Shown: positions 4,771-60,676, counted from the first letter of the stretch. The stretch: 64,000 bases of DNA from Anaerolineae bacterium (GCA_041685915.1 JAWLEV010000003.1:11206-75205), one strand, 5' to 3'. Made by a program: numbers and translations. The notes: generated by a model not told the origin, from the sequence alone.

Positions 4771-4799
4771 TTGTGAGTGTGAGGCAGGTATGGTAGAAT
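4771..4799 (+). promoter_or_regulatory. Sigma70-like promoter (TTGTGA, 17 nt spacer, TGgTAGAAT extended -10) upstream of the LuxR/Kelch gene
   Basis: -35 at 4771-4776 and -10 at 4794-4799, about 27 nt upstream of the ATG at 4826. Confidence 0.4.
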
Positions 4800-4825
4800 G
4801 CTGGGTGACATATAGAGAGGGAGCC

Positions 4826-6166
4826 ATGAGCACCGAATCTCCGGACGAACTGAGTGCGCGGGAAAAGGAGATACTGGAACTGGTCGCCACGGGGGCGACG
4901 AACCGGCAGATCGCTGCCAAGTTGACCATCAGCATCAACACGGTCAAGACCCATCTCCGCAACGTCTTTACCAAGCTTTCCGTCGAGTCGCGGACGGAGG
5001 CAGCCTTGTGGGCCGTGAAATATGGTGTGGTTGAGGTCGAACAGGAGAACACCCACTCAACACACGAGGATGATATATCGAAAGAGCCCGTGGATTGGGA
5101 ACTGGAAAGTCAGTGGCCATTGCGAGTGGGCCAGTATCTGGCTTTAGGGATTTCGCTCCTCTTTATCCTTATTGTCACTTTTGGGGCCAAAAAGGTCCGG
5201 GGCACGGATGACCAAGAAAGTCCCTTTGTGGATCTTCCTCGGATGACGGAAAGCGATATTTCTGTGGGCTCCTCTTCGCGGTGGCGGTCAAAGACTCAGT
5301 TGCCCACACCTCGAGGTCGCTTTGCCCAAACACAGGTGGAAGACAAGATATTTGTCATCAGCGGTTCGGAGGATCAGGGATGGAGCGCGGCAGTCGAAGT
5401 GTATGACGTAACCCGAGATGACTGGGAACGGAAACGTGATAAGCCCACACCCGTGGCCAATGTAGGGGCGGTGGCTATAGATGGTCTGATCTATGTTCCG
5501 GGGGGACTGGATGCATCGGATCGGGTACGGGATATCCTTGAGGTTTATGATCCAGAGGCCGATGCCTGGCATACCTCGACCCCTTTACCAACGCCTCTAT
5601 GTGCCTATGCCATCGCACCTTTCGAGGATGGCTTTTATCTTTTTGGCGGCTGGGACGGGGAGATGTATCGCTCGTCCGTGTACTATTACGATGTGCCTTC
5701 CGAGACCTGGCGTGAGGAGGAATCCATGGAGACGGCCAAGGCATTTGCTGCAGCCGCCTTGCTAAAAGATCGCATTTATCTCGTGGGGGGATATGACGGT
5801 TCCCAGGAATTCGATCTATGTCATTCTTATACCCCCTCCCTCGCTGCGGAGGAAAGCGATCCATGGCAGGAACACGCCCCCATGAGCATCGGGCGGGCGG
5901 GACACGCCATGGCAGCATCTCAAGGAGGACTGTATGTCGTTGGTGGGGGATTGAAAAATACCTTTACATATAACGAACGCTATGATGTAGGAAACAATGC
6001 TTGGTCCAGCTTTGAAAGTCCCATCACTGATCGCTGGCGCACCTTGGGACTCTCAACCGCCAATTCCAAAGATGGCACGTTTCTCTATGCCATCGGAGGC
6101 TGGAATGGAAAGCATCTAGGTGCTGTGGAAACCTATCAAATATCTTTTCGAGTGTATTTACCATAA
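4826..6166 (+). CDS. LuxR/GerE-type HTH (N-terminal), single TM helix, then Kelch-repeat beta-propeller protein
   Basis: REKEILELVATGATNRQIAAKLTISINTVKTHLRNVFTKLSV is a GerE HTH. The hydrophobic segment is YLALGISLLFILIVTFGA. Kelch-like repeats are IYVPGG, FYLFGGWDG, IYLVGGYDG, LYVVGGG and LYAIGGWNG. The RBS GAGAGGGAG precedes the ATG at 4826. Confidence 0.7.
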   Translation: MSTESPDELSAREKEILELVATGATNRQIAAKLTISINTVKTHLRNVFTKLSVESRTEAALWAVKYGVVEVEQENTHSTHEDDISKEPVDWELESQWPLRVGQYLALGISLLFILIVTFGAKKVRGTDDQESPFVDLPRMTESDISVGSSSRWRSKTQLPTPRGRFAQTQVEDKIFVISGSEDQGWSAAVEVYDVTRDDWERKRDKPTPVANVGAVAIDGLIYVPGGLDASDRVRDILEVYDPEADAWHTSTPLPTPLCAYAIAPFEDGFYLFGGWDGEMYRSSVYYYDVPSETWREEESMETAKAFAAAALLKDRIYLVGGYDGSQEFDLCHSYTPSLAAEESDPWQEHAPMSIGRAGHAMAASQGGLYVVGGGLKNTFTYNERYDVGNNAWSSFESPITDRWRTLGLSTANSKDGTFLYAIGGWNGKHLGAVETYQISFRVYLP

Positions 6167-6182
6167 AGGAGAATGGAACGTA

Positions 6183-6617
6183 ATGCCCGGGGACAATATC
6201 TACAAGGCCGACGCGACCTTGGTTCAGGGGCTACAGTTTGTGGGGCGGGGCGCTCAGTCGGGGATTGCTGTGGTGTTGGACGGCGTGGAAAAGCATGGTG
6301 GTTTAGAGAGCGGGATACGTCCCATGGAGTGTTTGCTGGTCAGTCTAGCCAGTTGCACCGCTATGGACGTCATATCCATCCTGCGCAAAAAGCGCCAGGA
6401 GGTGACAGGTTTTCGTGTGGAGGTAAAAGGAGTCCGGGCTGAGGAACATCCCAGGCGCTATGAGCGGATCACCCTGCATTATGTTGTCCAGGGCCACGAC
6501 GTGTCGGAGGAAGCCGTGGCCCGTTCCATTGAGTTGTCACAGACAAAGTACTGTGGCGTGACGGCCAGTCTCAAGAGTGAGATCGATTACGAGTATACAG
6601 TAGAGGCGGGGAACTGA
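6183..6617 (+). CDS. OsmC/Ohr-family peroxiredoxin-like protein
   Basis: ECLLVSLASCTAMDVISIL...TLHYVVQGHDVSEEAVARSIELSQTKYCGVTASL matches the OsmC fold with two conserved Cys. AAAGGAGA RBS upstream. Confidence 0.8.
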   Translation: MPGDNIYKADATLVQGLQFVGRGAQSGIAVVLDGVEKHGGLESGIRPMECLLVSLASCTAMDVISILRKKRQEVTGFRVEVKGVRAEEHPRRYERITLHYVVQGHDVSEEAVARSIELSQTKYCGVTASLKSEIDYEYTVEAGN

Positions 6618-8026
6618 TGGCCTCAACATACGATATCGTTATCATCGGAGCCGGGCCGGGCGGGTATGTGGCTGCCATTCGGGGGGCCCAGCGGGGCGCG
6701 AAAGTAGCCCTTGTGGATAGAGAGGGTATAGGAGGCACCTGTCTGAACTATGGTTGTATTCCCACAAAAGCCTTGGTCCGCGATGCGGAACTTTACCGTG
6801 ATGCTACCTCGGGAGATTATTGTGTGGATGTGGAAGGCTCGTTCCACCTCGACTTTTCGCGGCTTATGGAACGCAAGCGCGAGGTTGTAGATACACTCGT
6901 TGGTGGCGTGGAGAGGCTTCTGGGCAGCTACGGTGTAGATGTGTTTATAGGTCATGGACGCATCGAGCGTCCGGGGCTGGTTGAGGTACATGGGGAGAAG
7001 AGTACACAGGAGTTGCCCTGCGACGCTATCATCATCGCCACGGGATCTATCCCTTCGCGGGCGCCCATTGCTGGCAACGGCTTGCCCGGCGTGGTTTCCT
7101 CGCGAGAGCTATTGGAGATCGATAGTTTACCCGAACGTCTGGTAATCGTGGGTGGCAGCGCTGTGGGTGTGGAATTCGCCTGCATCTTTCAGGCGTTGGG
7201 TACAAAAGTCACCCTGCTGGGACGGAAAAGTTTTGTCAAGGAAACAGAGCCCCAGATCAGCAGACGATTGCGGGCATACATGAAACGGCAAGGCATGTCC
7301 GTTACTATCGGTCTCACGTTCAAGTCCGTGAAGCCCAATGATAAGGGATCTCTGCTTGTAGAATATGAACGCAATGGCAAAGACTTGTATGCTGAGGGGG
7401 ATCTTGTTCTCCTGGCTACGGGACGTAGACCCAATACAGAAACGCTGGAACTGGAAAGGTTAGGGATCGAAATGGAGGGCTTGGCCATCAAAGTAGACGA
7501 ATCACTGCGAACCAACGTGCCGGATATATATGCCATCGGCGATTGCACCGGCGGATATATGTTTGCCCATGTGGCTTCCTATGAGGCAGAGGTCGCTGTG
7601 GAGAACATTTTGGGAGAGAAGCGCAAGGCAGACTATCGCGTCGTGCCCACATGCATCTTTACCATGCCCGAGATCGCGGACGTAGGGATGACCGAAGCGG
7701 AAGCGAAAGAGGCTAGACTGACATATACCGTAACCCGTTTTCCCTTCCGGGCCAACGGGCGGGCGTTGGCCGTAGGCGAGACATATGGTCAGATCCGTAT
7801 GCTTTGTGAGCAGACCCCCGAAGGAGAGGGAGGGAAGGTGCTTGGGGTGCATATCATTGGGCCTCGCGCGGGCGATCTGATAGCCGAAGCCGCTCTTGCC
7901 ATGCGCCTCGGAGCCACGGCAGAGGAGATTGCCCAGACTATCCATGCTCACCCCACAATGCCAGAGGCGATGATGGAAGCCGCGATGGCCCATTCCCTGG
8001 GCGCCATTCACTATGAGCGAAGATAG
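6617..8026 (+). CDS. lpdA: Dihydrolipoyl dehydrogenase
   Basis: YDIVIIGAGPGGYVAA, then GGTCLNYGCIPTKAL (redox disulfide), then a C-terminal HAHPTMPEA motif. The start overlaps the preceding stop (TGATGG). Confidence 0.9.
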   Translation: MASTYDIVIIGAGPGGYVAAIRGAQRGAKVALVDREGIGGTCLNYGCIPTKALVRDAELYRDATSGDYCVDVEGSFHLDFSRLMERKREVVDTLVGGVERLLGSYGVDVFIGHGRIERPGLVEVHGEKSTQELPCDAIIIATGSIPSRAPIAGNGLPGVVSSRELLEIDSLPERLVIVGGSAVGVEFACIFQALGTKVTLLGRKSFVKETEPQISRRLRAYMKRQGMSVTIGLTFKSVKPNDKGSLLVEYERNGKDLYAEGDLVLLATGRRPNTETLELERLGIEMEGLAIKVDESLRTNVPDIYAIGDCTGGYMFAHVASYEAEVAVENILGEKRKADYRVVPTCIFTMPEIADVGMTEAEAKEARLTYTVTRFPFRANGRALAVGETYGQIRMLCEQTPEGEGGKVLGVHIIGPRAGDLIAEAALAMRLGATAEEIAQTIHAHPTMPEAMMEAAMAHSLGAIHYERR

Positions 8027-12216: not shown

Positions 12217-12249
12217 ATCAAGGGCACACCGTTTCGGTGCGCCCTTGAT
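12217..12249. terminator. Bidirectional terminator hairpin between the convergent thuA-like and bshA genes
   Basis: CAAGGGCACACCG-TTTC-GGTGCGCCCTTG imperfect 12-bp stem. Confidence 0.5.
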
Positions 12250-12280: not shown

Positions 12281-13420
12281 CTATTTCCCGCTATTTGGCG
12301 TTGGGTTTTTCAGAAGACGCTCATACAGGGCTTCATACTGGGGAATGATGTCGTGGTAGTCGAACAGCTCTGATGCCCGTTTGCGGGCCGCTTCACAAAA
12401 CTTTTCATATAGGGCGTGATCCGTGAGCAACGTGATGGCATCCTCGGCCATGGCCTTTGTGTCCCCCACGCCCTCCAGGAACCCTGTCTCGCCATGCCGC
12501 ACTACCTCACGCAGTCCTCCAACATCGCTGGCGATGACGGGTACACCGCTGGCCATGGCTTCCAGGGCTGCCAGACCGAATCCCTCCAGTTGACTTGGTA
12601 ACAAGAACAGATCGGCTGTCCTCAAGAGGGACTCTACCTCTTCGGTCACGCCCGTAAAACGCACCCGATCGGAGATGCCCAGTTCCAGGGCTTTTTGCAG
12701 CGCATGGCAGGTGTCGGGGCCGTCGCCGACCATGATCAACCGGGCATCCACCTCCTCGGCCACGTACGAAAAAATCTCGATCACGTCGACCACCCGCTTG
12801 ACTGCACGAAAGTTGGAGATATGCATAAGCGTACGCTGTCCGGGCGAGTCCCTGGGGGGAACGCACGAGGGAGGATGAGCCTGATGCCTATCGAGATCCA
12901 CGAAATTGTAGATGACCTCTATTTCCTTTTCCACCTGAAACTGGCGATACGCCTCTTCTTTGAGAAAATGGGATACGGTAGTGACAGCATCCGATTGCTT
13001 CAGGGCAAGTCTCGTCACGGGGAGAAAGGCGGGATGGCTGCCCACTTCTGTCACGTCGGTGCCATGAAGGGTGGTCACCACCTTGAGATCTAGCTCCGAG
13101 GCGATCTGTTTCACCAACAGGGCGGCCGGTGCAAAGGGGAGGGCGTAATGGGCGTGCAAGAGTTGTAGATCTTTCATGCGGGCCACGGTGACCATCTTGG
13201 ATGCCAGTGCCAGGGTATGGGGGAAATTTTGAAGTAAGGGATATTCCACCACTTCCACCTCGTGGAAACTGACGCCGGCTGGCGGGTGCGAAAGACGCAG
13301 GGGCGCTGCGTAGCTGATAAAGGCTACCTCATGTCCCCTTTCGGCCAAGTGCTTGCCTAACTCTGTGGCCACGACGCCACTGCCACCATGTGTCGGATAA
13401 CAGATGATACCTATACGCAT
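12281..13420 (-). CDS. bshA: N-acetyl-alpha-D-glucosaminyl L-malate synthase (GT4), bacillithiol biosynthesis BshA
   Basis: MRIGIICYPTHGGSGVVATELGKHLAERGHEVAFIS is the characteristic BshA N-terminus, within a GT4 fold. Confidence 0.8.
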   Translation of the reverse strand: MRIGIICYPTHGGSGVVATELGKHLAERGHEVAFISYAAPLRLSHPPAGVSFHEVEVVEYPLLQNFPHTLALASKMVTVARMKDLQLLHAHYALPFAPAALLVKQIASELDLKVVTTLHGTDVTEVGSHPAFLPVTRLALKQSDAVTTVSHFLKEEAYRQFQVEKEIEVIYNFVDLDRHQAHPPSCVPPRDSPGQRTLMHISNFRAVKRVVDVIEIFSYVAEEVDARLIMVGDGPDTCHALQKALELGISDRVRFTGVTEEVESLLRTADLFLLPSQLEGFGLAALEAMASGVPVIASDVGGLREVVRHGETGFLEGVGDTKAMAEDAITLLTDHALYEKFCEAARKRASELFDYHDIIPQYEALYERLLKNPTPNSGK

Positions 13421-13487
13421 CTTTTCTCCCTACTTTGACTACAAAGTCAGATCTACTGAAAATCCCATAATGGAAGTAGCCGGGATA

Positions 13488-14204
13488 TTAAAAAGAAGAG
13501 AACTCCATCCCCAGGGGATCGGTGACTTCCAGAGTCCCTCGAATTAGAAAGCCTTCGCCATATTTCTTTCCGATCAAAGATCCATAGTACGCCATGCGGT
13601 GTCTGAGGGACCAGTTATACTCACGAGAGGTCAGCCGGGTTTGCTTGTAGAAATTATCCTCTGGCTTGAACTGTGTAGAATAGGCATATATGGCTTGCAT
13701 CTTTTGCTCATACTGTTCGCTGATGTCCACAATGAAAGTGGGCTCGAATTCGTGCCAGGCCATATAATAGGCGAGACGCTTGGGACGAAAACTCTCTTGT
13801 CCTGTTCTGTATCGTGTGAGTCCGGCAAGAAAAATCCCCTCATAAACCAGCGTGCTCGTATGGTAGTGATCGGGATGTCTATCCTCGTGGTAGGGAAGAA
13901 AGATAAATCCCGGTCGGTACTTGCGTATCACACGAGCCACTCGGCGCTTACCCTCTTTACCGGTACGTATATGCCCGTCCTCCAGTTCCAGATTCTCACG
14001 CGCCTCGCCGCCTATGATTTGCAGGGCCTTTGCTGCCTCCTGCCGGCGCGTTTCCACGGTTCCCCGGGTAGCCAGTTCCCCCTCTGTCATATCCACCAAC
14101 ACGACAGAGTACCCCCTGGAGACCAGTTTGATCAGGGTACCGCCACATCCCAGCTCGATGTCGTCGGGATGGGCGCCAAAGGCCATAACATCGACGTCAG
14201 ACAT
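13488..14204 (-). CDS. bshB: LmbE/PIG-L family deacetylase, bacillithiol biosynthesis BshB
   Basis: VMAFGAHPDDIELGCGGTLIKL...DRHPDHYHTS is a PIG-L zinc-deacetylase signature. It lies between bshC and bshA. Confidence 0.75.
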   Translation of the reverse strand: MSDVDVMAFGAHPDDIELGCGGTLIKLVSRGYSVVLVDMTEGELATRGTVETRRQEAAKALQIIGGEARENLELEDGHIRTGKEGKRRVARVIRKYRPGFIFLPYHEDRHPDHYHTSTLVYEGIFLAGLTRYRTGQESFRPKRLAYYMAWHEFEPTFIVDISEQYEQKMQAIYAYSTQFKPEDNFYKQTRLTSREYNWSLRHRMAYYGSLIGKKYGEGFLIRGTLEVTDPLGMEFSSF

Positions 14205-15771
14205 TCTTTCCCTCCATTACAAGAATGTGATGACAGAAGTCGTCCAGAGCACCGCCTGCAAAAAGTCTATCGAAAAGGCCGAGTCCGTGAATATTCATAA
14301 AGTGGGGCAGGGGTAACACACGTTCCTGCAGGCGATCGCGGGGTAGGACGACATTTTGCAGGATGTGTATCTCTCCCTTGGACAGCCCCTTCTGACTCAT
14401 GAGGGCGCTTGTACTGCTCTCCTCCAGCTTATCGATGCCACGTAGTGCGTTGTTCACCGCCCATTCCCAACTCTTGGCCATGCTGGGATCGATTTCTTTG
14501 ACGTACGGTTTCAGCGGCGCGAACGCCTTTCCCACGTGCTCCCGGGCCGTGTCAAAGAGGTCCGTTCCCGCTTCAAAGGTGAACTTGCGCAGCACGTCAC
14601 TTGGGTCGGGTTCTTGCGTCAGAAGCTGCTCTGGAGTGACACCATAACGTTCCATGTCGTCCCCTTCGCTCTCATGCACCAGGGTGTAACTCTTGCGGGG
14701 AAAAAGAATGGGTTGAGGAAGATCAAACAGTTTGTAGAGGGGTTTGAGCATGGCATGATACGTTATCTCGCCGGGACCCAACACACTGACCAAGATGGGC
14801 AGAATAGCATCGGCGAAAAGGGGCCGCAGAGCTGCATCGGTCGAATAGTCCTCGGGATGGGTGCCCGCTTCCTCCACGTGGGTTGCGGGATCCTGCACCC
14901 GTACCCGATGGCCTCGGGCGTCAAAGGTGAAGGGGCGGGTGGCATCCTCTACGGGCAGTGTGGCCTCATAGCCGGCAGCGGTCAAATCCTCGGCGACTCC
15001 TCGCAAACGACACGTAATTTCCTCCGTCTCTTTTAACGCGGTCTGAAAGATGTGGGCTCCGAAGGGGCGCAGGATGCGTGGCTCCACCATGACAAGTCCC
15101 TGATCAGCAAAGAGCTGTGACCACAGCCTGCCGTGCCAGGTACAGTAATCCTCTTCCTTTTGAGGTGAGAAGCGCTTCTTTGTGATAGCATGGTGTGTGC
15201 CCGGAGTTAATCTGCCAAAGTACGTTTGGAAGGCATCTTTTATTTCCTCTGTAATGTCCAGATCGGCGATGGGACACCCCTGTTCATCCCAGGAAAAGCT
15301 AACTTGTCCCACCTCCCCATCGGGTTGAAAATAATAGGCCTGATTGATCTCGCCAAAATCGTGATCCTCGGTAGCCATCCAGAACATGGGCACGACGTCG
15401 ACGGAAAGTATTTCGTCGAGATAGGCGGCCAGGCGGATCGTGGTGATGATCTTATAGGTAGTATACATGGGACCACCCAGAAACCCTACCTGCTGGCCGG
15501 CTATCACACAAAACGTAGAGGGATCTTGCAGCGCGCGAATGTTCTCAAGCGTCCGCTCGCTGGCTCCCAGCTTTCGATTGTAGGGCAACAGTTGTTCTAC
15601 AAGTCCTTTGCGAGGAAAGTTATGTGACCGGCGACCAGCGAGTGCTCCACCAAAATCGGTGGGTGCGTGGGTGAAAAAAGTGTTGGCTTCTCCCCTATTC
15701 TTGAGATAGTCGATATGGAGCCTGCTTTGGAACCGGGCCGGCAGATCGTCCCAATCCACGTCGACGATCAT
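14197..15771 (-). CDS. bshC: Bacillithiol biosynthesis cysteine-adding enzyme BshC
   Basis: VIAGQQVGFLGGPMYTTYKIITTIRLA matches the BshC hallmark (GQQxGLxxGPLYTxYK). It is ~524 aa and its stop overlaps the bshB start. Confidence 0.8.
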   Translation of the reverse strand: MIVDVDWDDLPARFQSRLHIDYLKNRGEANTFFTHAPTDFGGALAGRRSHNFPRKGLVEQLLPYNRKLGASERTLENIRALQDPSTFCVIAGQQVGFLGGPMYTTYKIITTIRLAAYLDEILSVDVVPMFWMATEDHDFGEINQAYYFQPDGEVGQVSFSWDEQGCPIADLDITEEIKDAFQTYFGRLTPGTHHAITKKRFSPQKEEDYCTWHGRLWSQLFADQGLVMVEPRILRPFGAHIFQTALKETEEITCRLRGVAEDLTAAGYEATLPVEDATRPFTFDARGHRVRVQDPATHVEEAGTHPEDYSTDAALRPLFADAILPILVSVLGPGEITYHAMLKPLYKLFDLPQPILFPRKSYTLVHESEGDDMERYGVTPEQLLTQEPDPSDVLRKFTFEAGTDLFDTAREHVGKAFAPLKPYVKEIDPSMAKSWEWAVNNALRGIDKLEESSTSALMSQKGLSKGEIHILQNVVLPRDRLQERVLPLPHFMNIHGLGLFDRLFAGGALDDFCHHILVMEGKNV

Positions 15772-16538
15772 CTTGCCTCTTCCTTCTGTGCTGTGATGAC
15801 TAGTCGCGGACTGTCAGGCGAGAACTCCTCTCCAGCAAGTGATCCATATCGGTGAATATTCACGAACCCGGCGTCTTTTAGCATGACCACTATCTCGGAT
15901 GGGCGATACGCACGAACTGACTCATGGAACACGTTTTCCTTTCCTTCAAGATTCACAAAAAGGGTATCCTTTTCCACACGCCGCCCATTCTGGCTCAGGT
16001 AACGCACATTTCTGACATAACCGGCGCAGAACCGATCCTCATCGCAGGGAACCAGATGTCGGAGGACGTGATAACGATTCAAGTAGTCTATGAGGAACTT
16101 GCCCCCCGGTTTGAGGACACGATACACCTCACGAAACACGGCCGCGTTTTCCTCATCCTCCCCAAAGTACCCAAAGGAGGTAAAGAGGGACGCCACGGCA
16201 GCAAAATAGTTCCTATACGGGATGGCGCGCATATCCGCTCGTACCAGCTGTATATCTTCCTGAGGAGTCTCTCTTTGCTCCGGCGTGGCAAGTTTTTCGG
16301 CTGCTACCTTTAGCAGGGCCTCCGATAGGTCCAAACCTACCAGACGTGTCAGGCCCAACTTACGAAAGACTTGTAGGTAGCGACCGGCGCCACAGCCCAG
16401 GTCGAGAAAGGGTTCGTCCTTGCGAGGATTAAGAAGTTCCATGATCCTTTGGGCGTTCTTCGCCGCCTCTTCCGCGTCCCGATGGGCATAGAGTTGCAGA
16501 TACGGCAGCCCAAAGCTTTCCTCGTACCACGGGCTCAT
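15768..16538 (-). CDS. Class I SAM-dependent methyltransferase (candidate N-methyl-bacillithiol-forming enzyme)
   Basis: LDLGCGAGRYLQVF...LVGLDLSEALL (motif I and post-I). It is translationally coupled (ATGA overlaps) to both bshC and the MBL hydrolase. Confidence 0.8.
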   Translation of the reverse strand: MSPWYEESFGLPYLQLYAHRDAEEAAKNAQRIMELLNPRKDEPFLDLGCGAGRYLQVFRKLGLTRLVGLDLSEALLKVAAEKLATPEQRETPQEDIQLVRADMRAIPYRNYFAAVASLFTSFGYFGEDEENAAVFREVYRVLKPGGKFLIDYLNRYHVLRHLVPCDEDRFCAGYVRNVRYLSQNGRRVEKDTLFVNLEGKENVFHESVRAYRPSEIVVMLKDAGFVNIHRYGSLAGEEFSPDSPRLVITAQKEEAR

Positions 16539-17176
16539 GCTATACCATGCTCCCGCTTATAATCCTCCCAATTCTTTTTCAGGTCAACAAACGATGAAAA
16601 ATCGGATCGAAGAACAAAGGGATTGTTCTCCTTTTCCTCTCCGATGGTGGACCGAGGAGAGGTGCCATAATCGTGCCCCGGAAACACTCTCGTGCCCTCT
16701 GGTAGGGTCATGAGTTTCTCATGCAGAGAGACATATTCGGCCTTTGCCCCTTGGCCAAAGTCTGTGCCTCCCACCTTTCCCACAAACAGGGTATCCCCCG
16801 TAAAGACCGCGTCGCCGATGTACAGACATACAGAGTCGGGGCTGTGCCCCGGCGTATGAAGGATTTCTATCTCCAGATCTCCCAGAGGAAATGTGGCGCC
16901 ATCCTTCACTTTCTGTCCTGTGCGAGGATCCTCGTCCTGCCACTGCAGGACATCCACTCCCGTCAACGCTGCTACCCTCTCATTACCGTTTGCGTGGTCG
17001 ACATGTCCATGGGTGTTAAAGACATAGACGATGTCATAGTCATGCTCGCGGGCATAGTCGACGATCTTTTTCGGAGAATAGGAGGGATCGATCACTACCG
17101 CCTTTTTCGTGTCCGGATCGGCGACGAGATAGCCAAAATTTCGATCGCCGCCCACACGAAATTGCTTGATAAACAT
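16535..17176 (-). CDS. MBL-fold metallo-hydrolase (glyoxalase II-like)
   Basis: FNTHGHVDHANG is the HxHxDH motif. It is the first gene of the five-gene minus-strand operon. The RBS AGGAGAG precedes its ATG. Confidence 0.8.
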   Translation of the reverse strand: MFIKQFRVGGDRNFGYLVADPDTKKAVVIDPSYSPKKIVDYAREHDYDIVYVFNTHGHVDHANGNERVAALTGVDVLQWQDEDPRTGQKVKDGATFPLGDLEIEILHTPGHSPDSVCLYIGDAVFTGDTLFVGKVGGTDFGQGAKAEYVSLHEKLMTLPEGTRVFPGHDYGTSPRSTIGEEKENNPFVLRSDFSSFVDLKKNWEDYKREHGIA

Positions 17177-17230
17177 CTCTTCTCTCCTATCGATGTGATG
17201 AAATATCGTACTTGATACACGCGCCTGATT

Positions 17231-17259
17231 ATTGTACTTCTTTGTTAAGTAACTCGCAA
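17231..17259 (-). promoter_or_regulatory. Sigma70-like promoter for the MBL-MT-bshCBA operon (TTGCGA, 17 nt spacer, TACAAT on the minus strand)
   Basis: The reverse complement of 17231-17259 reads TTGCGA gttacttaacaaagaag TACAAT, about 55 nt upstream of the ATG at 17176. Confidence 0.5.
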
Positions 17260-17437
17260 TTCTCGGTTTATAATCTGGGATGTTACAGGATTAGAGAGAG
17301 GCATTCCCTATGGAGGACGAATACGGGCAGCATGCCCAGCGTCCCATATGATACACATGACGTCGCTCGTTACCTATTATGCGAATGTCGGACATCCGGT
17401 CTCTATAGCCCGCTCGGTGTGTTGTTTCATTTCTCTC

Positions 17438-29881: not shown

Positions 29882-30276
29882 GTGGAGATGGCGGGAATCG
29901 AACCCGCGTCCAAAAAGTTCGGCCAGAGACATCTACAGGTTTAGTCGATCCACATCATCTCATAGATCCGTTTTTGCTCGACAAAACCCGTAATCTACCA
30001 GCCGACAGAGTCTTTGGTCAGCGATATCGGCGTCTCCCTGACCGCAGCCCGATTTAGCCGTCGCCCGTTACTTTCCTCTCAGGCTAAGGAAGAGTAAGGA
30101 CGTGACCGGCACTTCTTGGCCGATCAAGCTCGTATTTTAACTGGTGCTACGCAGCTAAAGCGAGCTCTGGAGTATAAGTGTCTTCGGCACTTAAAGTGTT
30201 GCCTCTGATTTACGAGGATGAGGCACCTCGACCTGCAGTCCCTAACCAGCCCTTTCTGTCGAATCCTGTCATCCCC
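29882..30276 (-). ncRNA. ssrA: tmRNA (transfer-messenger RNA)
   Basis: On the minus strand the 5' end is GGGGATGACAGGATTCGACAG and the 3' end is GGACGCGGGTTCGATTCCCGCCATCTCCA. The acceptor stem GGGGATG/CATCTCC carries the G3:U wobble alanine identity pair. The internal tag ORF reads GCC GAA GAC ACT TAT ACT CCA GAG CTC GCT TTA GCT GCG TAG, i.e. AEDTYTPELALAA followed by a stop. smpB lies 1.1 kb away. Confidence 0.85.
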
Positions 30277-31421: not shown

Positions 31422-31904
31422 TCAGTATCTTCCTTCCCGCTCTGCACGCCGGATAGCGCGCTCTATGGCCCGCTCCGTTTCTCGCTCACGGATGGCGCGC
31501 CGCTTGTCGTATGCTCGCTTGCCTTTGGCCAGGCCAATCTCAACCTTTGCTATATCGTTCTTTAGGTAAAGTTTCAGAGGGACGATGGTATATCCCTTAC
31601 GCTCTGCACGTCCGAGCCAGCGGTCGATCTCTCTTCTGTGCATGAGCAGTTTTCTGTCGCGCTTGGGATCGTGATTCTCATAACTGGCCTGATCATATCC
31701 GGCGATATGGCTGCCCACCAACCAGGCTTCTCCATCACGAATCGTGACATAGGCATCGCGTAGGCTCACGCGCCCCGCGCGGACGGATTTTATCTCCGAG
31801 CCCTTTAGTGCGAGGCCGGCTTCCAACGTGTCCTCGATGGAATAGTCGTGAAATGCCTTGCGATTACGAGAGATAACGCGAACCCCTTTTCTCTTTCTAG
31901 CCAT
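31422..31904 (-). CDS. smpB: SsrA-binding protein SmpB
   Basis: ISRNRKAFHDYSIEDTLEAGLALKGSEIKS...KLYLKNDIAKVEIGLAKGKRAYDKR. Confidence 0.9.
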   Translation of the reverse strand: MARKRKGVRVISRNRKAFHDYSIEDTLEAGLALKGSEIKSVRAGRVSLRDAYVTIRDGEAWLVGSHIAGYDQASYENHDPKRDRKLLMHRREIDRWLGRAERKGYTIVPLKLYLKNDIAKVEIGLAKGKRAYDKRRAIRERETERAIERAIRRAEREGRY

Positions 31905-37906: not shown

Positions 37907-38983
37907 TTAGCCATTGCTTGCCTCGCTGGGATCGAGGCCATAGGTCTCCACCATGTCTGCCAGTCTTTCCTCATCCGTCTCCCATGCATAAACTGTGCGG
38001 GTGGTGTCAGGATGCTCATGTCCGAGTAGGGCGGCAACCCATTCCAGTGGCATGCCCTGATCCAGGAGATCCTGCGCGCGTCGGTGGCGCAAGGAATGTG
38101 GAGAGGTATTCTCATAGAGTCCTTCGGCCCGTGCGGCCTTTTTTATCAAAAGCCATGCGTGGCTTGGGGTGATGGCTGTGCCTTTATCACGGCCGTGGGA
38201 CACGAATAGGGGAGCATAGACGCTGTCCTTTCGCTCGCGCACATATTCCTGCAATAACTGTCGGGTTTCTTCTGACAGGAATACGGTACGGGGTTTGCCA
38301 TTCTTTGTCTCTGTCAAGCGTACTTTGTCGGCGCGTCCATCCAGTACGTCTTCTCGTGTAAGGGCCAGAGCCTCGCTGACGCGAGCTCCGGTGTCATAGA
38401 GGAAAGCCACAAAAGCCCGATTACGCAAAAGGACGAGGCGAGGCATTCCTCGTCTCTTGGGGAGGGGCTTGTTCATATAATGTGTCAATATCTTCATGAC
38501 GTCGGGATCGACCTTTCGTTGCTTATAGCCCTGGCGCTTTCTTCCGCGGGTGCCTTTTATGCGACGCAGCATGCGATCGTAAGATACGCCTTCGGGCAAG
38601 AGCTCATGTAAATCAAGCCAGTTTATGAGATGCTTGGTGGCTACCAGATAGGTACGACCGGTACGGCTTCCACGGACGCTTTGCTTCCCCTTGGCCTCTG
38701 CACGGGGATCGGGATAGGCCTCATGGAGCCAGCGGTTGAATGCAGATAGCGTTTCCTCATTTATGCGCTCGAGAGGGTAGGGATCGAGCGCTTCCGCGGC
38801 TTCGTCATCGCCCTCGGAGAGATGAAGAAAACGGATAAAGGCTTTTACGCCATAGAAATATGTCTGCCTGGTAAGCGGACTAAGTTCGAGGTCTTCCAGC
38901 ATGGCGTCGGCGGCTTGATTCACCGTTGTGATGGAAGAGGGAGATATATTTTCATCAGTAGGGTGGTGAGCCAAAGATTCCAT
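37907..38983 (-). mobile_element. Tyrosine-type site-specific recombinase/integrase gene (phage-integrase family, 358 aa)
   Basis: C-terminal catalytic domain: ...YDTGARVSEALALTREDV...HSLRHRRAQDLL...LLGHEHPDTTRTVY (R...HxxR...Y). The N-terminal SAM-like domain is present. It is adjacent to a 730-bp AT-rich non-coding stretch. Confidence 0.8.
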
Positions 38984-46548: not shown

Positions 46549-46688
46549 GATTGACGAGGGAAAAGGGGGGATCTGATGCCACAAGTCGAGTCTTTGCCCC
46601 GCTTCAACCTCGATCTGTTAGACTCTCTTTACTCCGTCAACGCATTCTCCAATTGGCCCATTCAGTCATCTTATGCCAGGAGGTCCAG

Positions 46689-48605
46689 ATGAATAGCGCA
46701 AAGAGCACGCAGGAAGAGACGCGAATAAAGATCATCTACTGTGTCGAATGCAATTTAGAACCGGAGGCCAAACGTTTGGCGACGGCGATAAAGAACCGCT
46801 TCGGCCTCGAGGCAAAGCTGGAAGAAGGGCACGACGGCATCTTTGAGATAAGCATGGACGACCACGTCATATATAACAATCTGGCTCAGGGGGGACAATT
46901 ACCAACCGACAAAGAGATTCTTCAGAGGATTCAGCAACGCATGGAACCACCCTCCAGCATAAGAAGGGAAAAGCTGAAGGTCATGAACCCCATGGGTTAT
47001 CCCCCCGCGGTGACTCAGATCGAGATGGCGCCCCGGCTCGACACCCTGGAGGGCAAGACCGTGTATCTGGTCGATTGCCGCTTCGACGATGGCGATCTAC
47101 TCATGGCCCAGATGCAAGCCTGGTTTAAGGAATATATGCCCTCTGTGAAAACGGTGCTGCGCAGCAAATCCGGTATCTATACCGAGGATGATCCCGAACT
47201 CTTTGAGGAGATCGGCGAGAAAGGTGATGCCTTGGTTTTGGGAGTGGGCCATTGAAGCACCTGTGCTCCGGCGGTCGCCGAGCATTGCATCAATATTGAA
47301 GACGAATATGGTGTACCGACAGTGTCGGTACACACAGACGCCTTTGAGCAAGCAGTCAAGGCTGTGGCCCGTACACACGGTATGCCCCAACAGCGTCTCG
47401 CCTTTGTTCCCATGCCCGTGATGGGCAAGTCACCGACAGAGTTAAGGGAGTACATCGAGGGAAACGATCCCGTCACAGGTCAGCCCGTCATGCACGAGAT
47501 CGTCGATGCCCTCACACACCCTCTGAGCGAGGAGGAGAAAAAGGGCTTTCGCTTTGACCGCTCCACTCCCCGCTTTGTGGCACCCGACACTGAGGAGAAT
47601 CTGCGACGTCTGTTCGCCAAAAAGGGTCGGACGGACTATTTGCCCATCGTCCTCCCCACGGAGGAACGCGTCGACGCCATGCTGTCGGGCACAAGCCATG
47701 ATCCCCAGGAAATAGTGGGCCAGATGCGCCCCACCTCGACCCGTGAGGCGTGGGAGTACACCGTCGAAAAAGTAGCGGTGAACGCCGTGATGGCCGGAGC
47801 GAGACCAGAGTATCTCCCCGTCATATTGGCCTTGGCGGCCACCCAGATCTCAGCGCGCCCCAGCACCACAAGTTCAGCGGCCTGTATGGTGGTCGTGAAC
47901 GGGCCAATACGTCACGAGATCGACATGAATTGGGGCATCGGCGCCATGGGGCCCTACAATCACGCCAACGCCACCATAGGACGAGCCTACGGGTTGCTGT
48001 CGCAGAACCTGCAGGGCGGCTCGGAACCGGCCCTCACCTATCTGGGATCACAGGGTAACAACTATGCTTATAACAGCATCACCTTTGCAGAAAACGAGGA
48101 ACGTAGCCCCTGGACGCCCTTCCACGTCGAGCAAGGCTTCGAAGCGGAAGAAAGTGCGGTCAGCGTCTTCGGTGGCGTGCGCTCCACGGCCTACAATCTG
48201 GGCGTGCGGGAGAAACACTGGCGAGAGCACGTGCGCAACATGCTGCGCGGTATGAACCCCTATCTACCGCCCACGTTCGTTTTGGACCCCATCACAGCAC
48301 GTCAGTTCGTCGATCGCGGCGCCTTTGACACCAAAGAGAAACTCATCCATTGGATTTATGACAATGCCAGGATGCCCGCGGGTGTCTACTGGGATCATCA
48401 ACTGATAGAAAATTACGTATATCCTCGCGCCCTGAACGGCGTGGAACCCTATGCTACCATGCTAGAAGCCGCCGATGATGAATTGATCTCCGTCTTTCCC
48501 AAGGACACGATCCACATCGTCGTTGTAGGCGGCGAAACCAACGGATATTGGCGCATCATGGGCTGCAATTACGCTGAAAGCATGTCCGTCGACGCGTGGA
48601 GATAG
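46689..48605 (+). CDS. Putative selenoprotein (~638 aa). Domain order: Rdx/SelW-like CxxC domain, then a selenoprotein-B (GrdB/PrdB-family)-like core with U-x-x-C, then a ~430-aa unknown C-terminal domain. The in-frame UGA (Sec) is at 47253-47255.
   Basis: ORFs 46551..47255 and 47322..48605 share one frame. The only stop between them is the UGA at 47253-47255, and the frame is open from that UGA to 48605. Neither GTG 47322 nor ATG 47382 has an RBS. Read-through gives EEIGEKGDALVLGVGH-U-STCAPAVAEHCINIEDEYGVPTVSV, which parallels the PrdB Sec region (EEGVDAVLLTAG-U-GTCHRSAVIVQRAIEEAGIPTIII, recalled from memory). The N-terminal IKIIYCVECNLEPEAKRLATAIKNRFGLEAKLEEGHDGIFEI matches the Rdx (SelW/SelT) fold. 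AGGAGG lies 5 nt before the ATG at 46689. Confidence 0.55.
47265..47283 (+). promoter_or_regulatory. bSECIS-like hairpin (GCUC-C-GGC [GGUC] GCC-GAGC), 10 nt 3' of the in-frame UGA
   Basis: Stem of 7 bp plus a 1-nt bulge, with apical loop GGUC. The loop G/U sit at +22/+23 from the U of UGA. This is comparable to the E. coli fdhF SECIS, where the essential loop G23/U24 sit about 20 nt after UGA. Confidence 0.5.
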
Positions 48606-48808
48606 GATCAAAAAGAGCGTGAACATCAGCCCCCGGGCTGGTCCAAAAGCAGCATAACCCTTGGGCTGAGAATGGGTTACAACTATTGTGAGAGGGCTCT
48701 TGACGCGCGTGATGGTCCAGCCTTCAAAGTATGACCATAGGCTCACACAGAGCAATGCCTTCTCAAAACACGCCGAGGCCAGTAACCTACAGTTAGAGAG
48801 GATAATTG

Positions 48809-50605
48809 ATGGGTAAGGAACCACACGTTTTCAAATTCCTGAGAGATAAGGTCATCATACACTCCAGGGGTAGAATGTGCGAGACCCCCGACGAACTTTT
48901 GACAAGCGCACCTTTTAAAAGATTCCTGAGAATCATCCTGCAGCGCCTGTCGAAAAGGAACTCGCGATTCATGGGAATATTTGGCCCCCAGACTGACGTC
49001 CCCCCGGAGATAGACGAGGAAAGCATCACGCTTTTGATCCAAACCTTTCAACATCTGGCCAAACTGGACCGAGCCGTGGTTCCCAATATCCTGCCCGATG
49101 CAAAAGTCTTTTTTAGAGATCCGGACCTGCTGAACGACTTTGTCGAGTATCTCTATAACGCCTGGCGAGACTATGACCGCTTTATCATCATTTCCGGCTT
49201 TCAGGGAGATCAGCTGGACGAAAGACCTTATAGAACGTTTAACGAAACTGTGGAACAACTTATGCATCTGGTGCGAGGGACGTATCGCGATGTCCAGGAA
49301 AATATCACCCGTCAACATCCCCAAGTCTATCGCCAGGCGCGAGCGGGCGCAGACATTGCCACCATCGTCTCCCGCCAGAGCACCCGCGCGACATCCTGGA
49401 TAGAAGGAATCCCCTATAGCAAGCTAGAGCAAATACCCATCGTTCGTCAAGTATTGCTATATCCTCCACTGGTGCTCGATCCACCGATGAACCGCCGCAC
49501 AGGCCGATTCCGACGCGTCGAGGAAAATCCTCTCCTGCTTGTCCATCCCACAAGTGACGAATGGATCTGCTATCCGGCCAAGGTGGGCAAGTTACTTGTC
49601 CTTGTCTATATCCACGAAAAGTTTCTCGAATTGGGACTTTCCCTATGCAACCTGTTCAAAGTCGCCAGCGACAAGGATCTGCAAAGCAAACCAGACGCCA
49701 TCTACATGTTCGGTGTGCCCGGCGATGTGCTGGATCGCTTTGGGTCCCTGCCCACAGTCTTCTATGACGATCCCGATAACGAGATACTGATAGCCGCCGT
49801 ACCTAACGCCGACCGCTTCGGCTACTTTGGCTATCTAAAAAAGATGATACTTACGCTGCACAATGTCAAGATGATGACGATGGACCGCTTACCGTTCCAT
49901 GGCGCGCTGGTCAAGATCAGATTGCATAGTCAGACGCACACCATCCTCCTCATCGGCGATAGTGGCGCCGGCAAGTCGGAAACGTTGGAGGCCTTCCGTG
50001 TGCTGAGCGAGAACGAACTCCAGGACATGATCATCATCGCCGACGATATGGGCGCCATCGATATAGCCGATGGCGATGTCCTGGGATACGGCACAGAGAT
50101 CGGCGCCTTCATCCGATTGGACGATCTGCAACCCGGCTATGAATTCGGTCAGATGGGACGCGCCATATTCATGAGCCCTTCTAGGACGAATGCCCGCCTG
50201 CTTTTGCCTGTGACAACCTATCCCGATGTCGTGCAGGGTAATAAAATCGATATGATCCTCTATGCTAATAACTACCAAGAGGTGGACGAGGATCATCCCA
50301 TCATCGAACGATTCAAAGATCCCAGAGAAGCCCTCGAGGTGTTCGAACAGGGCAAAGTGATGAGCAAGGGCACCACCACCTCAAAAGGCATTGTACACTC
50401 CTATTTTGCTAATATTTTCGGTCCCCCACAATACAGGGACCTACACGACCGGATCGCCCGTCGCTACTTTGACCATTTCTTCGCCCATAGGATATTCGTG
50501 GCACAGATCAGGACGCGCCTGGGAATTCCAGGCTGGGAAACCAAGGGACCAGAAGAGGCAGCAAGGGCCCTGATCAAGCTGATGATGACCGACTACCGCT
50601 CCTGA
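48809..50605 (+). CDS. HprK-like P-loop kinase-domain protein with a ~380-aa unknown N-terminal region
   Basis: The C-terminal region HGALVKIRLHSQTHTILLIGDSGAGKSETLEAFRVL...IIIADDMG matches the HPr kinase/phosphorylase C-domain Walker A motif (GDSGxGKSE) and downstream ADD. GAGAGGA RBS upstream. Confidence 0.55.
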   Translation: MGKEPHVFKFLRDKVIIHSRGRMCETPDELLTSAPFKRFLRIILQRLSKRNSRFMGIFGPQTDVPPEIDEESITLLIQTFQHLAKLDRAVVPNILPDAKVFFRDPDLLNDFVEYLYNAWRDYDRFIIISGFQGDQLDERPYRTFNETVEQLMHLVRGTYRDVQENITRQHPQVYRQARAGADIATIVSRQSTRATSWIEGIPYSKLEQIPIVRQVLLYPPLVLDPPMNRRTGRFRRVEENPLLLVHPTSDEWICYPAKVGKLLVLVYIHEKFLELGLSLCNLFKVASDKDLQSKPDAIYMFGVPGDVLDRFGSLPTVFYDDPDNEILIAAVPNADRFGYFGYLKKMILTLHNVKMMTMDRLPFHGALVKIRLHSQTHTILLIGDSGAGKSETLEAFRVLSENELQDMIIIADDMGAIDIADGDVLGYGTEIGAFIRLDDLQPGYEFGQMGRAIFMSPSRTNARLLLPVTTYPDVVQGNKIDMILYANNYQEVDEDHPIIERFKDPREALEVFEQGKVMSKGTTTSKGIVHSYFANIFGPPQYRDLHDRIARRYFDHFFAHRIFVAQIRTRLGIPGWETKGPEEAARALIKLMMTDYRS

Positions 50606-56569: not shown

Positions 56570-56615
56570 ACACGATAACCTGGGAACACGCCAAGAGGAA
56601 AGAGAAATAGGCACC

Positions 56616-59570: not shown

Positions 59571-60588
59571 AACATCACCCAAAAACGCGAACAATCTGAA
59601 AAAAGCCCTGTTCGGACTGCCCCATATCATCACATGGATCCTTATATTAGCCACCGTGGCCGCCTTTGGCCTGTGGGGCTTTTCACACCTCGATGGCTTC
59701 TCCTGGAGCTGGGACGAAAGCCTGCTCATTGCTACCGCACGGGCGGTGAATGCAGGGAACGCCCTCTATGAGGAGATTTGGTACGATTATCCTCCCCTAT
59801 TCCCTTTACTCCTGCAACCAGCATTCCGACTCGGCTCCGAACCCATACAGGCTGCTCGAGGCCTCATCGTCGTATGTAGCCTCGTAACCCTGATAAGCGC
59901 GGGCTGGATTACTCATCAGGTAAGCCATAGCGATCTGGCCTCTATAACAGCAGTTCTCCTGCTCCTGTTGGCACCCCCTTTTGTGGCCAACTCACGAGCC
60001 GCCCTGGCAGATCTCCCCGCCCTCACACTGGCTGCACTGGCACTGGCGACCACCTTGCACGGCAAAAAGTCAGAGGCCCGGCCATGGTTCGCTGTGGCCG
60101 GATTTCTCTACAGCGCAAGCCTGGCCATCAAACCAACCTCCTACTTTGTCATCTTGCCCATGATCGTCCTGTTGTGGACCGGAGATGGCGACACCGCTTT
60201 TCCTTTACAGGACTTGACGGCACTGGTTGAGCGGCTCCTCTTTGTCGCCGGAGGTTGCACTATCGGGCTCATTCTCTTTTTCGCCTGGGTGCCCATGAGG
60301 GCCTTTCTCCAACAACTGCTCCAAACCTATTGGGGTGCTCAACAACACCACGGTTTCGAGTTTGTGGAGAACTTGAGGCACGTATGGCTCTACTTTGTTG
60401 GAGACGAGTATGGCGGCTCACAATGCGGACTCTTTTCCCTGAGCGCTTTTGGATGTCTGGCCATGTTGATGCTTCTCGCCGACGGAGTCCTGACAATGCC
60501 GTCAGATTGGAGAGCAGGCCATACCCGTAACTGCAGGCAGCCACCTCCCTCCAAGGATATCTTTATCCAAATTGCTGTTAGTAGATAG
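59563..60588 (+). CDS. Short (341 aa) GT-C-like polytopic membrane protein without the C-terminal soluble domains
   Basis: Start ATG overlaps the upstream stop (ATGACTGA). The first loop FSWSWDESLLIATARAVNAGNALYEEIWYDYPPLF matches the loop of the partial gene at 63073 (FAWKYDEGINVSKAQLLLDRHHLYEDIWSDQPPLF). Confidence 0.6.
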   Translation: MTETSPKNANNLKKALFGLPHIITWILILATVAAFGLWGFSHLDGFSWSWDESLLIATARAVNAGNALYEEIWYDYPPLFPLLLQPAFRLGSEPIQAARGLIVVCSLVTLISAGWITHQVSHSDLASITAVLLLLLAPPFVANSRAALADLPALTLAALALATTLHGKKSEARPWFAVAGFLYSASLAIKPTSYFVILPMIVLLWTGDGDTAFPLQDLTALVERLLFVAGGCTIGLILFFAWVPMRAFLQQLLQTYWGAQQHHGFEFVENLRHVWLYFVGDEYGGSQCGLFSLSAFGCLAMLMLLADGVLTMPSDWRAGHTRNCRQPPPSKDIFIQIAVSR

Positions 60589-60676
60589 AGATGATATCAT
60601 AATTGCTCAGTAAAGAGCGAGCACATATACCTTCAGTTGAAAGAAGGGCTGATCGACTAGTGTTGACTATGCACCG

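Follow-up and report, generated by a model that had tools for sequence, protein, structure and literature searches.

What is made from a run of genes in which three bacillithiol biosynthesis genes are kept together with those of a methyltransferase and an MBL-fold protein? It has been suggested that, of the low-molecular-weight thiols of bacteria, bacillithiol and its N-methyl form are the most widely distributed, and Anaerolineae, the group considered here, occur in large numbers in anaerobic digesters, sediments, and wastewater. Surveys of thiol pathways rest on cultured RefSeq genomes, and in one such survey of 2025 the Chloroflexota were scored as being without a complete bacillithiol pathway. 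No pertinent work came up when we searched the literature for bacillithiol in Anaerolineae, Chloroflexi, or Chloroflexota. The answer that we favor, with a probability of roughly three in four, is that the genes are transcribed as one unit and that the Anaerolineae bacterium carrying them makes N-methyl-bacillithiol (N-Me-BSH).

An earlier note on this DNA had described five minus-strand genes in the order MBL, methyltransferase, bshC, bshB, and bshA. ORF calling over the window, by which we mean the whole 64-kb stretch that was analyzed, found five co-directional ORFs exactly there (Table 1). Three of them are bacillithiol genes, as BshA (485.1 bits, cut-off 273.7), BshB1 (279.4 bits, cut-off 182.5), and BshC (308.3 bits, cut-off 265.8) all exceed the cut-offs of their NCBIfam equivalog models.

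Table 1. Features of the five-gene locus and its borders (positions counted from the first nucleotide of the window)
Feature	Position	Strand	Remarks
MBL-fold protein (first gene)	16535-17176	-	213 aa; Pfam Lactamase_B
Class I SAM methyltransferase, nmbA candidate	15768-16538	-	256 aa; predicted bacillithiol cysteine-N-methyltransferase
bshC, cysteine-adding enzyme	14197-15771	-	524 aa; TIGR03998; Pfam Rossmann-like_BshC + CC_BshC
bshB, BshB1-type GlcNAc-malate deacetylase	13488-14204	-	238 aa; TIGR04001; Pfam PIG-L
bshA, GlcNAc-malate synthase, GT4 family	12281-13420	-	379 aa; TIGR03999
Promoter-like block, TTGCGA-17-TACAAT at 17259-17231	17228..17263	-	55 nt 5' of MBL start codon
GC-rich hairpin, 15 bp	12217..12249	-	32 nt past bshA stop codon; without U tract

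Pfam matches the methyltransferase to the generic Methyltransf_25/11 families only. From its position, the earlier note had considered it a strong candidate for the NmbA step and had proposed a comparison with the CT1040 (NmbA) clade, which turned out positive. The best PDB match, over the full length, is the N-methyl-bacillithiol synthase of Chlorobaculum tepidum, CtNmbA (CT1040, 9RI2; E 1.4e-32, 116 bits), 20 orders of magnitude ahead of the next, 1wzn (E 2e-12, 50 bits). Identity to CtNmbA is 34.3% over 254 aa (coverage 97%, E 3e-41), the sole such match in the window and a level at which substrate specificity should not be taken for granted. Published thresholds for CT1040 orthologs are a BLAST E value of at most 1e-20, similar length, coverage above 80%, and identity above 25% (Hammerstad 2025, PMC12719100) or, alternatively, identity of at least 30% (Hiras 2018, PMC6282198); with these values and 256 aa against 266 aa, the window methyltransferase falls within both. 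Closeness to NmbA was gauged in two directions by profile or single-sequence scores against PDB chains. A Chlorobi NmbA HMM gave 165 bits to the window methyltransferase and 87 to the best non-NmbA PDB chain, and an Anaerolineae-only profile gave 171 bits to 9RI2 and 80 to the next PDB chain; both ways, the window methyltransferase is nearer to NmbA than to any other characterized methyltransferase. The NmbA proteins of Chlorobi have 52 invariant residues, of which the window methyltransferase keeps 40, cap-domain residues among them. Outside the generic SAM motifs, those kept include W16, F21, Y26, Y30, H32, R33, R70, R189, K198, E214, S215, and R254, and S252 is kept as well, while W20S, H71Y, N85L, and Q127S are changes at invariant positions. 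In their work on CtNmbA, the crystallographers made adjustments to W20, among other residues, at the substrate entry (PMC12719100). The class I motifs FLDLGCGAGR (motif I, V/L-L-D-x-x-C-G-x-G) and SFGYF (the Y-F pair, motifs IV/V) are present and align to 9RI2.

The AF2 model of the methyltransferase (pLDDT 90.8) has a Rossmann core and a beta-strand cap. Foldseek ranked 9RI2 first (E 2.6e-21), at a TM of 0.69/0.76 that is no better than for CypM, CcbJ, or 1wzn, and by this fold comparison NmbA was not separable from other cap-type N-/C-methyltransferases. According to the authors of the crystal structure, AlphaFold mispredicts the narrow "molecular basket" cap even for CtNmbA. Membership in the NmbA family thus rests on sequence and genomic context.

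This context is found well beyond the window. Metagenomic loci were taken as informative when the NmbA-family gene was followed by 800 nt or more. Of 66 such loci, which represent diverse lineages, 59 have a same-strand BshC homolog within 1.2 kb downstream, the NmbA-family gene being directly 5' of bshC; in two distant loci (L035 and L053) the neighboring BshC passes the TIGR03998 cut-off. The entire five-gene cassette is found again, between other neighboring genes, in L007, L009/L016, L011, L017, and L001, and the grouping of the genes is therefore not due to chance. The metagenome scan was done with an alignment and was far more informative than a scan of genome contigs with the single methyltransferase sequence, which was too narrow, as it recovered one true relative (L001).

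Could the operon nevertheless make plain bacillithiol, with the methyltransferase being an NmbA-like paralog that methylates some other molecule, for example an intermediate of the pathway, a different amine, or a conjugate of bacillithiol? We give little credence to this, for although identity to CtNmbA is modest, some Chlorobi-invariant residues are changed, and related cap-type methyltransferases use very different amines (peptide N-termini, amino sugars), the gene adjoins bshC across lineages and is here coupled to it in translation, any other characterized methyltransferase has reciprocal profile scores about half as high, the signature residues of the cap domain are mostly retained, and both NmbAs tested so far, from two phyla, are BSH-specific. 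CtNmbA N-methylates BSH in vitro, and not GSH, glycine, or BSSB (PMC12719100); the NmbA of Paenibacillus polymyxa has been validated biochemically as well. Considering the homology to NmbA, the profile scores, the retained residues, and the adjacency to bshC, we take an nmbA-bshC-bshB-bshA operon for N-methyl-bacillithiol to be the most likely identity of the locus. We infer that bacillithiol would be the substrate of the methyltransferase and that N-Me-BSH would be present in the cell.

All five genes had been thought to be coupled by overlaps of 4-8 nt. This is true of the three junctions from the MBL gene to bshB, with 4 nt (ATGA) shared at both the MBL/methyltransferase and the methyltransferase/bshC junction and 8 nt (ATGTCTGA) at bshC/bshB. 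It is not true of bshB and bshA, which are separated by a 67-nt spacer, so that the overlap-coupled genes are four rather than five; bshA is preceded by a GGGAG Shine-Dalgarno sequence of its own. The one promoter-like element that had been pointed out, TTGCGA-17-TACAAT, is present and agrees with the consensus at 9 of 12 positions, but the match alone is not above chance, since a promoter scan gave 7 such sites in the region and 5.4 +/- 2.2 in shuffles. The 36-nt block around it (AGAATTGCGAGTTACTTAACAAAGAAGTACAATAAT) is nearly invariant in the relatives L001 and L011, in which the flanking intergenic DNA diverges, and this conservation, seen in close relatives only, supports a role as functional promoter or operator. 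The block was not found in the more distant cassettes L007, L009, and L017, where the upstream sequences differ. At the other end, the hairpin in the 101-nt spacer between bshA and a convergent plus-strand ThuA gene has an RNA folding energy of -29.1 kcal/mol (z = -6.0), a stability reached by none of 200 shuffles. The hairpin was not called in a terminator scan because it has no T run; it is likely the end of the transcription unit.

The genome context had been judged not to be Firmicute-like, and in agreement with this, proteins of identical sequence bear the database label "MAG: Anaerolineae bacterium". Nfn-like and AOR genes are present in the window, and the host is probably anaerobic. 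No bacilliredoxin, YpdA/Bdr, or second BshB was found among the approximately 35 large ORFs scanned in the 64-kb window. A flavoprotein disulfide reductase (6617-8026), which is paired with an OsmC-family gene, was considered as a bacillithiol-disulfide reductase and rejected, as it passes the dihydrolipoyl dehydrogenase equivalog (495 vs 409).

Another pertinent question is what the MBL protein contributes. Only a generic family is matched in Pfam. Among PDB entries it is matched best by 4YSB, a persulfide dioxygenase from Myxococcus, and by 9RHQ, an entry for which our literature search found no paper; human glyoxalase II and ETHE1 come next. Similarity to the type I persulfide dioxygenases extends over 4YSB (35% identity, TM 0.83), 4CHL, and 8ZBD, and then to fusions such as CstB 3R2U. 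The dioxygenases also lead the fold ranking (4YSB and 4CHL on top), in which human glyoxalase II is fourth, and the fold comparison is therefore not decisive. The seven metal ligands of a binuclear site (H56, H58, D60, H61, H111, D128, and H168) show little or no variation, and the three that correspond to the His/His/Asp iron triad of persulfide dioxygenases (H56, H111, and D128) are invariant in 116 family members. New residues that are invariant in the family are GGDRN at the N-terminus, K134, E147-Y148, W203, Y206-K207, and H210. The protein belongs to a highly conserved family of 213 aa, an ETHE1/glyoxalase II-like subfamily that is closest to the ETHE1-type persulfide dioxygenases. Stand-alone copies of the gene adjoin an Ahr/AdhP-like aldehyde reductase in two genomes.

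A possible role, put forward in the earlier note and here considered tentatively, is that of a glyoxalase II-type thioester hydrolase, whose substrate would be S-lactoyl- or S-formyl-(N-methyl-)bacillithiol and whose product would be the free thiol. The conserved binuclear site is consistent with it, as are a core identity of 41% to human glyoxalase II and the fact that GloB (TIGR03413) is the top NCBIfam match. However, the GloB score of 103.5 is far under the cut-off of 200.8 (PRK10241 is below threshold too, 59.8 with a cut-off of 421), and the alignment to glyoxalase II 1QH3 stops at residue 172 of 213, the remainder following the dioxygenase pattern. The GxTDF loop after the bridging Asp is dioxygenase-like, two residues longer than in glyoxalase II, and it is persulfide dioxygenases that are the top matches by sequence and fold. 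There are further arguments for a hydrolase. In B. subtilis the gene for methylglyoxal synthase shares a transcript with bshA and bshB1, and an S-formyl-BSH hydrolase has yet to be identified (PMC5790435). The aldehyde reductase next to stand-alone copies points the same way, and the anaerobic look of the host disfavors an O2-dependent enzyme.

Somewhat more doubtful is a dedicated (N-methyl-)bacillithiol enzyme not yet described, of the ETHE1 lineage but with an invariant Gly and Phe in place of the glutathione-binding arginines. It could be an S-formyl-/S-lactoyl-bacillithiol hydrolase, a bacillithiol-persulfide dioxygenase, or a BshC helper, the lack of which has stood in the way of reconstituting BshC in vitro; the helper is the least likely of the three. 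Members of the MBL family are 65-70% identical across phyla (Zixibacteria, KSB1, Ca. Vecturithrix, and others), where they have no bsh neighbors, and operon-linked and stand-alone copies are equally similar, so the protein may be without any specific connection to bacillithiol. It could then be the product of a housekeeping gene that shares the thiol-gene promoter in this lineage and has no functional tie to the thiol, as the presence of the MBL gene 5' of nmbA in only 14 of 64 metagenomic loci would also suggest. We regard this as unlikely, because all Anaerolineae-type cassettes that were seen have the ATGA overlap with nmbA, although their flanks differ, and because the MBL gene recurs 5' of more distant nmbA genes (38-41% identity).

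Rather improbable is a persulfide dioxygenase adapted to (N-methyl-)bacillithiol persulfide, by which the thiol would be tied to sulfide detoxification, even though type I enzymes are the best matches, their TDF and EE-x-x-NP motifs are present, and S. aureus CstB oxidizes bacillithiol persulfide. Of the thiol-binding residues, R163 and Y197 (hETHE1 numbering) alone are conserved throughout the PDO types, and the AcPDO variant R139A, which matches R163, has 0.4% of activity left (PMC6060420; for the roles of these residues in the ETHE1 type see also PMC4383860). In the MBL family the equivalent of R163 is an invariant Gly137 and that of R214 an invariant Phe187, and Y197, which corresponds to Y170 in the window protein, is Val in 24% of members. 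The essential Cys of type I (C247) has no equivalent, since the protein ends at residue 213, and the probably anaerobic host also speaks against such an enzyme.

For the N-methyl-bacillithiol operon we envision the following sequence of events. BshA would join UDP-GlcNAc to L-malate, BshB would remove the acetyl group, and BshC would add cysteine to give bacillithiol, the cysteine amine of which would be methylated by the embedded class I SAM methyltransferase, a predicted NmbA ortholog. Translation of MBL, nmbA, bshC, and bshB would be coupled through the ATGA and ATGTCTGA overlaps, with bshA following from its own ribosome-binding site. As a best guess, and as conjecture, the metal-dependent MBL protein of the ETHE1/glyoxalase II lineage may recycle a modified form of this thiol. 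Its substrate could be an S-acyl adduct, either the S-lactoyl or the S-formyl thioester; a persulfide is a less likely candidate.

The locus and its many metagenomic relatives put a complete, operon-encoded pathway in Anaerolineae, within a phylum scored as lacking it. The linkage of nmbA and bshC across lineages lends independent genomic support to the NmbA assignment, which until now rested on two enzymes, and could serve as a simple marker to predict the organisms in which the thiol is methylated. In turn, the MBL family co-transcribed with these genes offers a concrete candidate for one unassigned bacillithiol-dependent activity.

How does the locus compare with known systems? Glyoxalase II (GloB; human HAGH, 1QH3) shares with the MBL protein the MBL core, all ligands of the binuclear site, and the top NCBIfam model, whereas the window protein reaches half the GloB cut-off, is without the C-terminal helical substrate-binding domain, and has the longer loop after the bridging Asp. 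The type I persulfide dioxygenases (ETHE1; M. xanthus PDO 4YSB) are its closest relatives by sequence and fold, with the HxHxDH, H, D, H ligands, the TDF loop, and EE-x-x-NP in common; it differs from them in having Gly for R163 and Phe for R214, in the absence of the essential C-terminal Cys, in a Tyr that is not universal in its family, and in being 20-40 residues shorter. CtNmbA and the window methyltransferase are both class I SAM methyltransferases of similar length (256 aa here), 34% identical end to end, with a common N-terminal cap signature (W-[FY]-E-E-x-F...Y-L-x-x-Y-x-H-R-D), R70, R189, K198, E214-S215, and R254, and both co-occur with BshA, BshB, and BshC. They differ at W20, H71, N85, and Q127, which are changed here, and in phylum, the host here being of the Chloroflexota. 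In Chlorobaculum nmbA adjoins no bsh gene, and the C. tepidum locus tags CT0548, CT1419, CT1558, and CT1040 are scattered (PMC12719100), whereas here all four genes are in one operon. The bsh operons of B. subtilis (ypjD-dapB-mgsA-bshB1-bshA and panE-bshC) likewise include a co-transcribed gene for thiol-dependent detoxification, mgsA in that organism and possibly the MBL gene here (PMC5790435). In B. subtilis, however, the bsh genes are distributed over two operons without a methyltransferase, while in the Anaerolineae bacterium all three stand together with the predicted nmbA.

The five co-directional minus-strand ORFs that an earlier note had read from the sequence as a bacillithiol operon were found where it had placed them, and all three Bsh proteins exceed their curated NCBIfam equivalog cut-offs. 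Its claim that the five genes are coupled by overlaps holds for four of them, the MBL/methyltransferase, methyltransferase/bshC and bshC/bshB junctions being ATGA, ATGA and ATGTCTGA, respectively, but not for bshA, which lies 67 nt from bshB and has its own GGGAG ribosome-binding site. The proposed promoter-like element is present, although a scan match alone is no better than chance (7 sites versus 5.4 +/- 2.2 in shuffles). The 36-nt block around it is near-invariant in L001 and L011, two related cassette loci where the surrounding intergenic DNA has diverged; sequences upstream of more distant cassettes differ from this block. At the other end, a hairpin with no U tract occupies the convergent spacer between bshA and a plus-strand ThuA gene. 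The earlier observation on the operon was essentially right.

Features of the bacillithiol operon, other features of the window, and related loci (prefixed L; positions within each locus)
Feature	Position	Strand	Remark
MBL-fold protein, 213 aa	16535-17176	-	only generic families matched
Class I SAM methyltransferase, 256 aa	15768-16538	-	only generic families matched
BshC, 524 aa	14197-15771	-	NCBIfam equivalog 308 vs cut-off 265.8
BshB (BshB1), 238 aa	13488-14204	-	NCBIfam equivalog 279 vs cut-off 182.5
BshA, 379 aa	12281-13420	-	NCBIfam equivalog 485 vs cut-off 273.7
Promoter-like element, TTGCGA-17-TACAAT	17259-17231	-	sequence scan and conservation in relatives
15-bp hairpin	32 nt past bshA stop codon		fold energy -29 kcal/mol, z = -6.0
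LuxR/GerE-Kelch protein	4790-6166	+	
OsmC ORF and dihydrolipoyl dehydrogenase	6120-8026	+	
Three ORFs of 427-599 aa	24950-26353, 47322-48605, 48806-50605	+	
tmRNA gene	29882-30276	-	
smpB	31422-31904	-	
Phage-type integrase	37907-38983	-	
Rdx/UGSC ORF	46551-47255	+	
LPG_synthase_TM and PMT/PMT_2 ORFs	54002-63076	+	
Inserted ORF	L007:10240-11202		
Stand-alone MBL gene and two preceding genes	L012:4892-7642, L014:4710-7642		
Distant nmbA locus	L035:4486-9054		order rlmH-nmbA-bshC-murJ
Distant nmbA locus	L053:3425-7490		order lpxK-rlmH-nmbA-bshC

The methyltransferase had been put forward as a candidate NmbA, and comparison with CT1040 bears this out. For METHYLTRANSFERASE of the operon (15768-16538) the highest-ranking PDB chain is 9RI2_A, the NmbA (CT1040) of Chlorobaculum tepidum, with residues 3-251 aligned to 15-260 (E 1.4e-32, 116 bits), and the second chain is 1wzn (2e-12). 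The C. tepidum and Paenibacillus polymyxa enzymes N-methylate reduced bacillithiol (BSH) using SAM and are inactive on BSSB, GSH and glycine (Hammerstad et al. 2025, PMC12719100). Pairwise BLAST against CtNmbA aligned 254 aa at 34.3% identity (E 3e-41), inside the thresholds that Hiras et al. 2018 and Hammerstad et al. (PMC12719100) each apply to orthologs; BLAST of CtNmbA against the window found no other resembling protein. With an HMM built from 116 Chlorobi NmbA sequences, the window protein reached 165 bits and the 120 relatives closest to it 146-200 bits, versus 87 bits for the best non-NmbA PDB chain with the same kind of profile; in the reverse search, an Anaerolineae-only profile gave 171 bits for 9RI2 and 80 bits for the next chain. 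The protein retains 40 of the 52 Chlorobi-clade invariant positions. Those outside the SAM-binding motifs include W16, F21, Y26, Y30, H32, R33, R70, R189, K198, E214, S215, S252 and R254, a set at least 93% conserved across 150 diverse representatives; W20, H71, N85 and Q127 are changed. The predicted model (pLDDT 90.8) has 9RI2 as its first Foldseek match, but the fold is uninformative on NmbA membership because its TM-score to 9RI2 is no better than to CypM, CcbJ or 1wzn and AlphaFold is reported to get the NmbA cap wrong (PMC12719100).

Gene order provides a separate line of evidence. The five-gene cassette recurs with differing flanking genes in L007, L009/L016, L011, L017 and L001; in L007 an inserted 320-aa ORF with no Pfam match separates bshB from bshA. 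When metagenomes were scanned with an alignment that combined Anaerolineae and Chlorobi sequences, 80 loci came back, their methyltransferases sharing 34-55% identity with that of the window. Where the downstream sequence extends for at least 800 nt (66 loci), a BshC homologue starts on the same strand within 1.2 kb in 59; where it extends for at least 3.4 kb (34 loci), 14 show the full nmbA-bshC-bshB-bshA order. Both distant cases checked, L035 and L053, pass the BshC equivalog cut-off; in each, the NmbA-family gene has rlmH before it and shares a 4-nt overlap with bshC, and neither bshB nor bshA lies within 5 kb. These lineages are apparently Gram-negative. The nmbA-bshC linkage is absent from both NmbA papers (Hiras et al. 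2018; Hammerstad et al. 2025, PMC12719100), in each of which the word "operon" occurs zero times. Its wide distribution is strong independent support for NmbA function, and the assignment of the methyltransferase as NmbA, with predicted N-methylation of BSH, has all the support that sequence and context can give.

The MBL protein of the locus comes from a strikingly conserved group of 213-aa proteins (62-88% identity over the top 120 clusters) encoded upstream of nmbA in only 14 of 64 metagenomic loci, mostly Anaerolineae-like. In two unrelated genomes a stand-alone copy follows the same two genes, for a sugar-epimerase-like AP_endonuc_2 protein and an Ahr/AdhP-like zinc alcohol dehydrogenase. 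We lean weakly towards an S-acyl-bacillithiol thioesterase because the host looks anaerobic and these two copies adjoin an aldehyde-reductase-like ADH; in addition, the S-formyl-BSH hydrolase is still to be assigned and mgsA is co-transcribed with bshA/bshB1 in B. subtilis, although the protein fails the GloB equivalog cut-offs. A bacillithiol-persulfide dioxygenase is another candidate, since the nearest solved relatives in sequence and predicted fold are the type I persulfide dioxygenases 4YSB, 9RHQ and 4CHL (human glyoxalase II is close behind), and the protein shares the dioxygenase pattern in its EE-x-x-NP motif and in the loop past the bridging Asp. However, with ETHE1 residue roles taken from PMC6060420 and PMC4383860, the R163 equivalent is an invariant Gly (an Ala variant at the matching position of AcPDO retains 0.4% activity; PMC6060420), that of R214 is an invariant Phe, Val replaces Y197 in 24% of members, and the essential C247 has no equivalent. 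A role without a tie to bacillithiol is also a candidate, as the family occurs without bsh neighbours in Ca. Vecturithrix, Zixibacteria, KSB1 and another genome, in copies as similar as the operon-linked ones. All seven metal ligands are invariant, and the family is a distinct subfamily, with substrate-binding residues unlike those of both known functions.

The genome context had correctly been called not Firmicute-like. Identical copies of the methyltransferase and MBL protein are deposited as "MAG: Anaerolineae bacterium", and the closest loci come from Anaerolineales MAGs. Upstream of the operon lie glycosidases of families GH4 and GH106 together with an FAA-hydrolase and an aldehyde:ferredoxin oxidoreductase; ThuA and an NfnAB-like pair lie on its downstream side. 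The proposed Kelch regulator is a LuxR/GerE helix-turn-helix domain fused with Kelch repeats. Beside it, an OsmC-family ORF (165 aa; 95 bits, below cut-off) overlaps by 1 nt a dihydrolipoyl dehydrogenase gene, the two apparently forming a lipoyl-dependent hydroperoxide reductase pair; a bacillithiol-disulfide reductase was rejected here, as the gene passes TIGR01350 (495 bits versus cut-off 409). Elsewhere, a 234-aa ORF carries an Rdx (SelW/SelT-like thioredoxin-fold) and a UGSC-family domain, both from families that include selenoproteins. The tmRNA gene (tag AEDTYTPELALAA) and smpB lie 1.1 kb apart, with the integrase 6 kb further, past a MacB/ABC/HlyD export operon. An LPG_synthase_TM protein is followed by three very large ORFs in succession (855, 1021 and 799 aa), all PMT/PMT_2-family and membrane glycosyltransferase-like, and the three ORFs of 427-599 aa had no Pfam match at E <= 1e-5.

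Chloroflexota are listed among the phyla without any RefSeq member holding a complete BSH or N-Me-BSH pathway (Hammerstad et al. supplement, PMC12719100), and full-text literature searches found nothing tying bacillithiol to Chloroflexi or Anaerolineae. For the methyltransferase alone, at least 120 distinct clusters (defined at 90% identity) reach 49% identity or higher; every named one is Anaerolineae or Chloroflexi, and the pathway is evidently common among uncultured Anaerolineae. In Chlorobaculum nmbA adjoins no bsh gene, unlike in the operon described here; the latter is compact in layout, and the locus extends the known system to a phylum previously not credited with it.
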